Below, piece by piece: positions 36,175-62,835 of a DNA stretch of 64,000 nt. The notes beneath the pieces were generated by a model that searched no databases, had not been told where the DNA came from, and was given only the letters and a program-made list of their open reading frames with translations. Origin of the DNA: Thermoplasmatota archaeon (GTDB lineage Archaea > Thermoplasmatota > Thermoplasmata > UBA10834); assembly GCA_040751795.1 (NCBI GenBank), contig JBFMHR010000002.1:288001-352000 (forward strand), in the 5' to 3' direction. Every line of letters begins with the position of its first letter. Within the stretch, counting starts at the first letter, position 1. The translations under genes were made by a program, and so were the position numbers.

Positions 36175-36264
36175 GCCGAGGTAGCTAAGCCCGGTTTAAG
36201 GCGGTAGCCTCGAGAGCTACTGGTGCTTGTCACCACGGGAGTTCAAATCTCCCCCTCGGCGCCA
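36175..36264 (+). tRNA. tRNA-Ser(CGA)
   Basis: Acceptor GCCGAGG/CCTCGGC with encoded GCCA end, anticodon arm GTAGC-CT-CGA-GA-GCTAC, long variable arm, TTCAAAT T-loop. Confidence 0.96.
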
Positions 36265-60944: not shown

Positions 60945-61583
60945 TCAGTTGAGTTTCATCTTAGCCAGGCGCTTCTGGACTTCCTTGTCGTCCAGGGGCG
61001 TGAAGCCCTCCGGCGTGATGGTGGCGACGGTGTAGCCGTCGCCGGAGGCCGAGTCGCGCCTCATGGCGGCGTGCAGCGACCTGATGGCCAGGTCGACGCC
61101 GTCGTTGACAGTGAGGTCCTTCTGGTAGTGGTCCTCGAGGACGCCGTACACGTACGGCGAGCCGGAGCCGGTGGTGACGTAGTCGTCGGGGATGGCCCCT
61201 CCGACCATGTCCAGGGCGTAGACGTGGCCGCCGTCCTTGTCCACGCCGCCGAGTATGAGGCCCACCCAGTACGGGTAGAACCTGCTGCCCGCGAGTATGT
61301 TGGAGGTCAGGGTCGCGCCGGACTTGACCGTCATCGGCTGGCCCCTCTTGAGCTTGTAGAGCTCCACCTCCGCGGTGATGTACCGCGCGAGGGTCTGGGC
61401 GTCGCCGACTACCCCCGCGACCGCGAGCCCCATGTTGTCGTCGATCTTGAAAAGCTTCTGCGTGGTCTTGTGGGCTATGAGCGTGCCCATCGTGGCCCTC
61501 TTCTCAGTGGCCATGACCACTCCGTCCTTGCAGACGAGGCCTATTGTGGTCGTGCCCTTCTTGACATCTTCAGTGCTTGTCAT
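60945..61583 (-). CDS. psmB: Proteasome beta subunit
   Basis: Propeptide then G|TTTIG, GSGS, RDSASG. Confidence 0.97.
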   Translation of the reverse strand: MTSTEDVKKGTTTIGLVCKDGVVMATEKRATMGTLIAHKTTQKLFKIDDNMGLAVAGVVGDAQTLARYITAEVELYKLKRGQPMTVKSGATLTSNILAGSRFYPYWVGLILGGVDKDGGHVYALDMVGGAIPDDYVTTGSGSPYVYGVLEDHYQKDLTVNDGVDLAIRSLHAAMRRDSASGDGYTVATITPEGFTPLDDKEVQKRLAKMKLN

Positions 61584-61742
61584 GGATTAACACCACTGCG
61601 AAAATCGGTGTGTTAAAAGCCGTTTTAGAACGCATGACGGTGGCAGTATATAATTGTTTTTCAGGATTGCGAGCTGGCGCCCCTGCCAGGCTCCCATCAG
61701 CCAGGGGCAACGTTTAAGGCCGATGGGGGAGAATAGTATCCC

Positions 61743-61860
61743 TGAGATGGGTAGCCTGTAAGTCCCTTCCTTGGTTGCACGCGACCCTTGTGGACACCGT
61801 GCTCCTAGAACTGGATTCGGAAGGGCCTGGCGTCAGGAAACCGATTGCCTGCCCATCTCA
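61743..61860 (+). ncRNA. Candidate ~118-nt structured ncRNA of unknown family
   Basis: 12-bp closing stem TGAGATGGGTAG/CTGCCCATCTCA, nested stems, TTTAAG box 25 nt upstream, pyrimidine tract downstream. Confidence 0.65.
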
Positions 61861-61920
61861 CCCTTCTTCGTCGCTAGACTTAATACCTGAACGGTCGATA
61901 GGCACAGCAGAGGCCCCCCG

Positions 61921-62277
61921 ATGAGGATACTGGTGGTGGACGACTCCGAGGCCTTCAGGAGGGTCATGACGGAGCTGCTCATGAAGGCGGGCTACGGCGA
62001 CGTCAGGGGCGCCGGAGGGTACGAGGAGGCCCTGGCCGCATACGCGGAGGCCCGCCCGGACATCGTCTTCGTCGACATGGTCCTGCCCGGCCGCTCCGGC
62101 GTGGACCTCACGAAGGCGATACTGGGAGCCGACCCGAAGGCCAGGATCATCGCCATGAGCTCGATAGTGAACAAGTCGATGATCAAGGAGAGCCTCGAGG
62201 CGGGCGCCAAGGACTTCATCCTGAAGCCGACGAACGCCATGGCCCTCGGCTCGATCCTGTCCATGTGGGGTGGTTAG
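61921..62277 (+). CDS. Stand-alone response regulator receiver (CheY-like)
   Basis: VVDD, phospho-Asp FVDMVLP, MSS, ILKP. Confidence 0.93.
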   Translation: MRILVVDDSEAFRRVMTELLMKAGYGDVRGAGGYEEALAAYAEARPDIVFVDMVLPGRSGVDLTKAILGADPKARIIAMSSIVNKSMIKESLEAGAKDFILKPTNAMALGSILSMWGG

Positions 62278-62325: not shown

Positions 62326-62835
62326 GTGGCGGGCCCGGACGCCGCCCGCAGGTACGACCTCCGTCCGGGCAGGTGCTACGTGGTCGAGGAGGCGCCCCCG
62401 TCGGTGAGCTTCGACGCCTTCGCCAGCCTCGTGTCGGCCCCCGGCGGCGGGGCCGCGGGGATGGCCGTCACCAGGCAGCACCCCGACCTCGTCAGGCAGA
62501 GGTACGGCCTGGAGAGGACCCCGGTCTACTGGCTCGCCACGCGCGCGGGCGAGGGCGTCATATCCCCCACCAACCTCGGCATATTGACCCAGACGCTGGT
62601 GAAGTTCATCGGGGATAACGACGACGGCGTCATACTCCTGGACGGGCTCGAGTACCTCGTCTCCAACAACGACTTCGGGAAGGTCCTCAAGGTCGTGGAC
62701 CAGGTCCACGACCACATATCTCAGAGCGGCTCGAGGCTCATCCTCCCAGTCGACCCGAGGGCCTTCGAGCCCAGGGAGCTCGCCCTCCTCGAGAGGAACA
62801 TGGACAGGATAGCCGGGGCGACGGACGAGGGCTGA
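62326..62835 (+). CDS. DUF835 domain protein (may start at ACG 62278)
   Basis: VTR.HP, YWL, ISPTNL, ILLDGLEYLV..NDF, ELALLER. Confidence 0.88.
   Translation: MAGPDAARRYDLRPGRCYVVEEAPPSVSFDAFASLVSAPGGGAAGMAVTRQHPDLVRQRYGLERTPVYWLATRAGEGVISPTNLGILTQTLVKFIGDNDDGVILLDGLEYLVSNNDFGKVLKVVDQVHDHISQSGSRLILPVDPRAFEPRELALLERNMDRIAGATDEG

Follow-up and report, generated by a model that had tools for sequence, protein, structure and literature searches.

A predicted stand-alone gene for a structured small RNA of the Thermoplasmatota that matches no described RNA family

The window analysed here is a stretch of 64,000 nucleotides (nt) of DNA from a Thermoplasmatota archaeon (positions 288,001 to 352,000 of contig JBFMHR010000002.1, GenBank assembly GCA_040751795.1), and the element of interest lies at positions 61742-61869 on its plus strand. 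This element is likely to be a stand-alone gene, vertically inherited in many lineages of the Thermoplasmatota and equipped with its own promoter of a B recognition element and TATA box (BRE/TATA), whose product would be a structured RNA of about 120 nt that folds into a three-way junction and acts in trans by means of that fold. The predicted gene is about 120-128 nt long and has a conserved core at 61744-61859; both of its ends are placed by promoter spacing and by a pyrimidine- and T-rich tail, and so are to be taken as approximate predictions. The interval scores 136.3 bits against R1, a covariance model made from 29 sequences of the window's family (alignment A1), and 110.6 bits against R2, a covariance model made from 26 diverse copies (alignment A2). 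Members of the group are 111-153 nt long across the phylum. The element matches no described RNA family and is a previously undescribed structured small RNA gene of the Thermoplasmatota, whose strand, predicted structure and distribution, like the gene itself, are established by comparison of sequences.

When the window sequence is folded alone, its minimum free energy is -46.7 kcal/mol (z = -1.23), of 200 dinucleotide shuffles 22 equal or surpass this value, and the minus strand folds about equally well (z = -0.78). Since a fold of this single sequence is not beyond chance, the reality of the element is settled by comparison. RNAalifold, given a MAFFT alignment of the family, recovers a three-way junction with all six helices (P1 to P6). 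Across 66 distinct copies, 98.1% of the cells pair and 17 of the 30 pairs show compensatory changes, in 169 cells; when the partners are slid by one to three columns as a control, at most 7 pairs and 29 cells result, and none of 500 shuffles reaches the observed values. In a set of 46 diverse copies that includes other classes of the phylum, 95.4% of the cells pair, compensatory changes are found in 23 of the 30 pairs and 235 cells, versus 33 or fewer after sliding, and all six helices covary. A structure-blind MAFFT alignment of 33 of these 46 copies, from which near-duplicates and copies with large insertions (13 in all) were left out, recovers P1, P2 and P6, in which 12 of 15 pairs change in a compensatory way. 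A preliminary description of this DNA, made from the letters of the window, had proposed covariation and conservation among Thermoplasmatota relatives as a check on a structured RNA, and the helices do covary in an element that is widely kept. The strand can be read from the same comparison. G-U occurs in 56 of 1334 pair cells, which on the other strand would be A-C mismatches, and these cells, together with a fixed A-rich stretch and TATA-like box upstream, place the RNA on the plus strand.

These data also bear on whether there is an RNA at all. The sequences of P1 and P6 are invariant within the window's family and two open reading frames (ORFs) of 49 amino acids overlap the element, as might be found for a conserved DNA site or a small protein-coding gene, but the compensatory changes in all helices keep the pairing and not the sequence. 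Neither ORF has a Pfam match. Copies differ in length by 1-2 nt, and stop codons interrupt all three plus-strand frames in 26 of the 46 copies and all three minus-strand frames in 22 of the 46, so that the small insertions and deletions and the stops argue against protein coding. An explanation without any RNA is therefore scarcely credible.

In the predicted fold, P1 joins both ends of the molecule, the long arm, interrupted by two internal loops, is built from P2, P3, P4 and P5, and P6 forms a short hairpin. The 5' strand of P1 (GAGAUGGG, 61744-61751) pairs with its 3' strand (CCCAUCUC, 61852-61859), a helix returned by the family RNAalifold, by covariation and by the structure-blind alignment; in the set of 46 diverse copies, to which the copy counts below also refer, all 8 of its pairs show compensatory changes and 98.9% of its cells are paired. 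P1 leads into the junction segment J1/2 (UA, 61752-61753), whose A is invariant and whose U is found in at least 90% of the copies; with G61754 of P2, the segment reads UAG. P2 pairs GCC (61754-61756) with GGC (61829-61831). Its third pair is G-C in 21 copies, A-U in 11 and C-G in 10, and its second pair changes from C-G to G-C in 8. The preliminary description had drawn a closing stem of 12 base pairs (bp) at 61743-61754/61849-61860. The arms are 92% complementary with one G-U pair, in agreement with that drawing, but the top three pairs (61752-61754 with 61849-61851) are mutually exclusive with P2 and P6, which the comparison favours, and the conserved P1 has 8 bp.

The long arm continues with J2/3 (UGUAA) and the 5' strand of P3 (a G, the bulged U61763 and CCCUUCC), together at 61757-61770 and with the P3 partner at 61819-61826. 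P3 itself consists of 61762 and 61764-61770 paired with 61819-61826; five of its eight pairs show compensatory changes, and the motif U-A-A-G-N-C-C, which runs from J2/3 into P3, is nearly invariant. An inner stem at this place had been seen before, and the repeat AGTCCCTTCC/GGAAGGGCCT at 61761-61770/61819-61828 confirms it, as does the presence of GCACG and CGTGC at 61777-61781 and 61798-61802 for the stem inside it. In the RNA these last segments form P4 (GCACG/CGUGC), which encloses the hairpin P5 (61786-61787/61792-61793), the whole feature spanning 61777-61802. P4 is invariant inside the window's family, and its GCAC/GUGC becomes GUAC/GUAC in 11 of the 46 copies, those of another class; P5 varies in length and covaries. 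The 3' strand of the internal loop between P3 and P4 (61803-61818) begins with a conserved Y-C-C-R-A-A-A, which is UCCUAGA in the window.

P6 (61834-61851) has a stem of CAGG (61834-61837) and CCUG (61848-61851) closed by a loop of 10 nt. The stem is identical in 45 of the 46 copies, and in the remaining copy it is CGAG/CUCG, with both inner pairs changed together. P6 abuts the 3' strand of P1, and the two helices make a stack of 12 bp with no base between them. A GAAA-capped hairpin had been proposed at about 61829-61848; the hairpin exists, and it is P6 with its 4-bp stem and 10-nt loop, but it carries no GNRA tetraloop. In families f4, f15, f29 and f3 the P6 loop carries a further hairpin of 15-33 nt, so that the RNA reaches 132-153 nt; such insertions are compatible with a tip that is free. 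When the column pairs of two alignments, A3 and A4, are all scanned for mutual information, the known helix pairs and their neighbours make up most of the output, and a further pair inside the P6 loop (A-U in 42 and C-G in 7 of 66) may extend P6. The scan gives no convincing long-range tertiary pair or pseudoknot in either alignment. A pairing between the P6 loop and an internal loop, seen by eye in three sequences, was dropped, as its register differs in each. The near-invariant bases cluster at the junction (UAG, the GC/GC of P2, G-N and the CAGG/CCUG of P6) and, within the long arm, in its internal loops, where UAAG-N-CC faces GGC and YCCRAAA follows P4. At the tips of P5 and P6, the sequence is free to vary or to accept insertions.

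The putative promoter of the RNA gene is a BRE/TATA-like box on the plus strand (GCAACG TTTAAGG, 61707-61720). It contains the TTTAAG at 61713-61718 that had drawn attention before and that is found there both by reading the sequence and by a repeat finder. An A-rich stretch followed by TTTAAG or TTTAT stands at a constant distance from P1 in 30 of 30 family loci, and an AT-rich box about 30 nt upstream recurs at an equal distance in every other family and class examined. In 36 of the 46 copies, an octamer with at least seven A or T residues lies at -38 to -18, and the remaining 10 reach six of eight. The archaeal TATA box usually lies about 26 nt from the transcription start, and by this spacing the RNA would start near 61740-61744; transcription from this promoter would thereby begin at P1 or within a few bases of it. 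About 10 nt upstream of P1 is a conserved AATA (61732-61735; AATA, AATG or ACAT in the family alignment), possibly a proximal promoter element. The BRE/TATA-like box is also flanked by an inverted repeat of 10 nt (CCCATCAGCC/GGCCGATGGG, 61693-61702/61718-61727, 90% complementary), which could be the operator of a regulator or a chance match and is not obvious in relatives.

On the other side of P1, the pyrimidine-rich tail ACCCUUCUUC (61860-61869) is the probable 3' end region, and it includes the pyrimidine stretch CCCTTCTTC that had been reported at 61861-61869 and is indeed there. The first three bases after P1 (61860-61862) are N-C-C in 26 of the 46 copies, and two copies have ACCA. A run of at least three T residues within 30 nt of P1 is found in only 19 of the 46 copies, and a terminator is not defined. 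Farther downstream is a second, well conserved promoter-like box (TAGACTTAATACC, 61872-61885), which has CAACGATAAATAC or a variant of it, in the window CTTAATAC at 61877-61884. The sequence (C)AACGATAAATAC, or a variant, follows the RNA by 15-25 nt in most family loci, and then come GGAGG and the start of a response-regulator gene, of which this second box is probably the promoter.

Ten sequencing runs contain parts of the stretch, each with less than half of the sampled words. Four runs with an RNA label were compared in the form of contigs. Two of them, X1 and X2, probably derive from DNA, X4 covers the neighbouring proteasome gene psmB alone, and X3 has one contig over the 3' two-thirds of the RNA. 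This contig is 154 nt long with a word depth of 21.3, covers 61772-61866 and extends 57 nt beyond the RNA. The flanking genes have no cover in the X3 run, although uncovered parts carry no information; as a sign of expression, the contig is a weak hint at best.

The distribution of the element was followed from the window's family outwards. BLASTN with a query of 201 nt finds it at E <= 1.7e-14 in 34 of 36 other sampled genomes of the family and, outside the family, returns only scraps of about 23 nt. Covariance searches reach farther. R1 detects the element with 110-140 bits in 43 of the 45 family genomes, finds it in none of three genomes of the sister family, f2, and already reaches other families of the class, where its matches are single and full-length. 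Both family genomes without an R1 match also lack the adjacent psmB, so that the locus is unassembled there. R2 was used with strict filters and is a narrow model, such that a miss is to be read as "not found" and not as "absent". Of the 151 genomes sampled from the class, 43 give full-length R2 matches, including 5 of 5 in f4, 6 of 7 in f10, 2 of 2 in f13 and 4 of 4 in f15, with none in f8 (0 of 10), f11 (0 of 15), f16 (0 of 17) and f19 (0 of 12). A phylum sample with other classes included gives 27 of 151, among them 11 of 16 in f44, 2 of 2 in f49 and 3 of 4 in f50. In the sister family f2, the syntenic spacer of 200 nt holds no RNA, with a best match of 12.5 bits that is partial and was obtained with filters off, and the best matches genome-wide (E 0.96 and 1.57) are unlike the RNA family. 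In lineages without a match, the RNA would be either not essential or diverged beyond the model; judged by its distribution, it is dispensable in some lineages and can be lost.

Two exact-pattern scans covered 185,579 species with one genome for each. Archaeal matches are listed only in records labelled Thermoplasmata, Thermoplasmatota, Methanomassiliicoccales, Methanomassiliicoccus sp. and Methanomethylophilaceae, or under the unspecific names Euryarchaeota, Methanobacteriota and "archaeon". Among the matches listed of both scans, all 52 of 52 archaeal loci match R2 at E <= 1.1e-13. The second scan gives 70 stretches, of which 49 are archaeal, and its 21 bacterial loci were outside the R2 check. 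The matches listed for the first scan are mostly bacterial, and the bacterial matches look like chance matches in GC-rich coding DNA. About 30 GC-rich bacterial genomes among the matches listed share one conserved stretch that looks coding and in which the spacing is always 105 nt. It is taken for a conserved bacterial protein gene read on the opposite strand and unrelated to the RNA, an example of how a gapped pattern of 20 bases may strike such a gene.

Genomes carry one match each. The exception in the R1 search is two metagenome-assembled genomes with two copies (G016, at C18:84102-84226 and 98208-98333; G024, at C74:24151-24280 and C64:424-552). One of the G016 copies is identical to that of G009, which belongs to another genus, and mixed binning is therefore a likelier cause of the two-copy genomes than true duplication. 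With one copy per genome, a box at a fixed distance in all lineages and helices that covary, the earlier suggestion of a stand-alone non-coding RNA with paired ends and its own promoter is upheld.

In the window, the element lies between psmB, which encodes the beta subunit of the proteasome and is the divergent upstream neighbour (60945-61583, minus strand; PF00227, E 4.5e-59), and a response-regulator receiver gene that begins outside the RNA (61921-62277, plus strand; PF00072, E 4.1e-25), itself followed by a DUF835 gene (62326-62835, plus strand; PF05763, E 3.5e-32). The order in the window's family (f1) is FttA (aCPSF1) and psmB on the minus strand, the RNA, the response regulator and DUF835. 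The ORFs that flank the RNA were compared with Pfam at 28 loci within the class and 13 in other classes, and among these 41 loci no neighbour is common across families; synteny is found only inside families. The neighbour is a Ras-like GTPase in f4 and DUF2085 in f6, each convergent with the RNA, and the next downstream gene is on the opposite strand in f4, f6, f7, f46 and f65. The neighbours are a DRG GTPase and DUF2721 in f10, PdxS (vitamin B6, upstream) and Nre in f44, and eIF2-gamma upstream with a Pelota/aRF1-like gene downstream in both f15 and f29. Proteins of about 500 amino acids adjoin the RNA in f10 and f13 and are unrelated between these families; those of two f10 loci are related to one another (38% identity), and that of a third f10 locus is not. 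The sister family f2 has psmB and two ORFs upstream of it that are sized like the response-regulator and DUF835 genes, a likeness of size only and with no Pfam comparison, and no RNA lies between them.

The differing neighbours and the convergent downstream genes together point to a stand-alone gene, which the element is predicted to be, and not to a leader of the response-regulator/DUF835 pair. The preliminary description had offered a riboswitch-like leader of that pair as its second option. This proposal does not hold, given that the neighbourhood is limited to one family, a second promoter-like box intervenes and the downstream gene is on the opposite strand in several families. In a more general form, the RNA could be a riboswitch or a protein-binding element in the 5' untranslated region of whichever gene lies downstream, here the response regulator and DUF835. 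Its conservation, centred on the junction, is aptamer-like, a same-strand gene begins 20-40 nt after P1 in f10, f13, f44 and f3 (a Pop5-like gene in f3), and T runs are scarce, as noted above. These points are set against downstream genes that are mutually unrelated and, in the five families named, convergent, against the promoter-like box between the RNA and the regulator gene in the window's family, and against the sister family, which keeps psmB and the two ORFs of matching size without the RNA. Nor does any known riboswitch model match. A cis-acting leader is therefore decidedly unlikely, and a generic riboswitch or leader was rejected on the same grounds of unrelated or convergent downstream genes and the intervening box.

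Known RNA families were searched with the 4227 models of Rfam 15. At gathering scores, the whole window has only a tRNA (transfer RNA), at 36175-36261 on the plus strand (87 nt, 51.8 bits), which is long enough to suggest that it has an intron or an extended variable arm. With the threshold relaxed to E <= 10, the interval 61550-61950 gives four matches of irrelevant families, all with E >= 1.1 and 29-40 bits below their cut-offs, and 15 divergent members of the group give no match at E <= 1. The novelty of the RNA had been made to hang on such a search, and no Rfam 15 family matches the element. Full-text searches of the literature found no description of such an RNA. The 224 candidate motifs of one published survey are presumably included in Rfam 15, which gives no match to the element. 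Passages of that survey (PMC5737381) make no mention of Thermoplasma-related taxa, and its supplements could list a related motif.

Among single families, 5S ribosomal RNA (rRNA) resembles the element in several respects: a size of about 120 nt, paired ends, a three-way junction with a long first arm, a stand-alone gene and its own promoter. The 5S rRNA model (RF00001, cut-off 38 bits) has no match at 61550-61950 (E <= 10) or in the 15 divergent members (E <= 1), and the canonical 5S rRNA gene of this genome, at 79.5 bits, is on another contig. Unlike 5S rRNA, the element has a second arm that is only a 4-bp hairpin, and it is not found in many lineages of the class. Were it a divergent paralogue of some housekeeping RNA, such as a 5S-like RNA, the size of 111-153 nt, the paired ends, the Y shape, the promoter and the single copy would be accounted for, but the silence of the 5S model, the presence of 5S, RNase P and signal recognition particle (SRP) RNAs elsewhere in the genome and the 4-bp second arm make such an origin very improbable. 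The RNase P RNA (RF00373) and SRP RNA (RF01857) of the genome are full-length elsewhere (182.4 and 152.4 bits), and neither model matches the element. The archaeal RNase P and SRP RNAs are similar to the element in being single-copy, with their own promoters, a conserved core, a variable periphery and lineage-specific insertions at hairpin tips; the element differs in being much smaller and not universal. The bulged P3 may bear a likeness to helix P4 of RNase P RNA; the bulged base varies in the element (U, A, C or G).

The preliminary description had noted a loose likeness to words of the thiamine pyrophosphate (TPP) aptamer. The TPP riboswitch model (RF00059, gathering score 54.3 bits) finds nothing at E <= 10, either at the element or in the rest of the genome, so that this likeness falls away, and there are no thiamine genes among the flanking ORFs of the 41 loci. 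What the element and the TPP riboswitch have in common is a junction-type fold and a few short aptamer-like words; they differ in that the element is not placed as a leader in many lineages.

The same description had held that the element does not resemble 5S rRNA, tRNA or a C/D RNA, and this is borne out by the lack of 5S and tRNA matches and by a reading of the boxes. ARAGORN finds no tRNA gene in 61400-62100, and no tRNA model matches at the element. The P1 and P6 stack and the N-C-C tail are reminiscent of a tRNA-like minihelix of acceptor and T arm, but the P6 loop lacks the T-loop consensus. C/D box small RNAs carry RUGAUGA (the C box) close to their 5' end and CUGA (the D box) close to their 3' end, the two forming a kink-turn. 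The element has no RUGAUGA, and CUGA occurs in it only once, by the 5' end (61742-61745), at a site that varies and is CCGAGAU in relatives. In H/ACA small RNAs, the basal stem is followed immediately on its 3' side by an ACA (ANA) box, and the upper stem contains a kink-turn or K-loop. The tails of the element are mostly N-C-C and not ACA, no tandem G-A pairs of a kink-turn flank P4, and position 1b varies among G, A and U.

Orphan structured non-coding RNA classes of bacteria include the raiA motif, OLE, ROOL and GOLLD. The element is like these in having a structure supported by covariation, in standing alone, in being conserved across a large taxon and in having no described function. It differs in being archaeal and 111-153 nt long, whereas those RNAs are bacterial and mostly much larger, with no likeness to it in sequence or structure. 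PMC11109978 and PMC12054373 deal with this general topic, and the latter reports that OLE RNA works as a ribonucleoprotein.

As to what the RNA does, a conserved core with a variable periphery and without a conserved single-stranded seed or neighbour points to an RNA that acts through its fold, as a scaffold, ligand binder or catalyst, and not to an antisense regulator. The proposed course is that transcription from the BRE/TATA promoter would give an RNA that folds into the three-way junction of paired ends (P1), long arm (P2 to P5) and short hairpin (P6), and that this RNA would act in trans through its three-dimensional fold. It would most probably serve as the RNA component of a ribonucleoprotein whose conserved protein binds at the junction; a small ligand at that site is less probable. 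If the gene is accepted as real, the pattern of conservation somewhat favours such a trans-acting ribonucleoprotein RNA, with a partner held by the junction.

A small regulatory RNA (sRNA) that pairs with messenger RNAs through one of its loops is the other trans-acting reading, and it is unlikely. A stand-alone gene with its own promoter is the usual layout of archaeal and bacterial sRNAs, and the Y-C-C-R-A-A-A stretch of the internal loop is conserved and drawn unpaired. The conserved bases, on the other side, are mostly helical or junctional, and the hairpin loops, which are the usual seed sites, vary or carry insertions. Conservation of structure this deep across a phylum is also unusual for antisense sRNAs and counts against a base-pairing regulator.

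Several observations weigh against a stand-alone, fold-acting RNA that works as a ribonucleoprotein. No partner protein, ligand or target was found, though no search aimed at targets was made, and the case for a ribonucleoprotein is the conservation pattern itself. The folding energy of the single window sequence is unremarkable, as given above (z -1.23). The alignments A3 and A4, which underlie the covariation counts on 66 and 46 copies, were fitted to the structure of the model and lean towards it, and the inner arm was not recovered in the structure-blind alignment of 33 diverse copies, in which the variable arm is poorly aligned. The RNA was not found in the sister family f2 or in many families of the class. 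The sole support from an RNA library is the X3 contig, which comes from a sediment metatranscriptome and from a relative, and for which carry-over of DNA is possible. Finally, f10, f13 and f44 have a Shine-Dalgarno-like stretch and an ATG about 20-30 nt after the RNA on the same strand, with no obvious terminator, and in these families the RNA may double as the 5' end of a messenger RNA. The genes downstream there encode, respectively, DUF2721, an unnamed protein of about 500 amino acids and a protein of about 314 amino acids with a weak match to M29 peptidases; being unrelated, they are a poor fit to one class of riboswitch.

To our knowledge, very few classes of structured non-coding RNA have been described in archaea beyond rRNA, tRNA, RNase P RNA, SRP RNA and guide RNAs. 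As a tentative proposal, and a rather doubtful one, the RNA class may predate the split of the Thermoplasmatota classes and the junction core may be an active site new to archaea, whether as the subunit of a ribonucleoprotein, a free metabolite sensor or a small ribozyme. The covariance model can annotate the RNA in hundreds of genomes, and the small size of the molecule suits pull-down, probing and structural work. The RNA is kept in many lineages of a phylum that counts methanogens of gut and sediment (Methanomassiliicoccales) and abundant archaea of sediments among its members, and it points to a cellular function that has so far gone undescribed.

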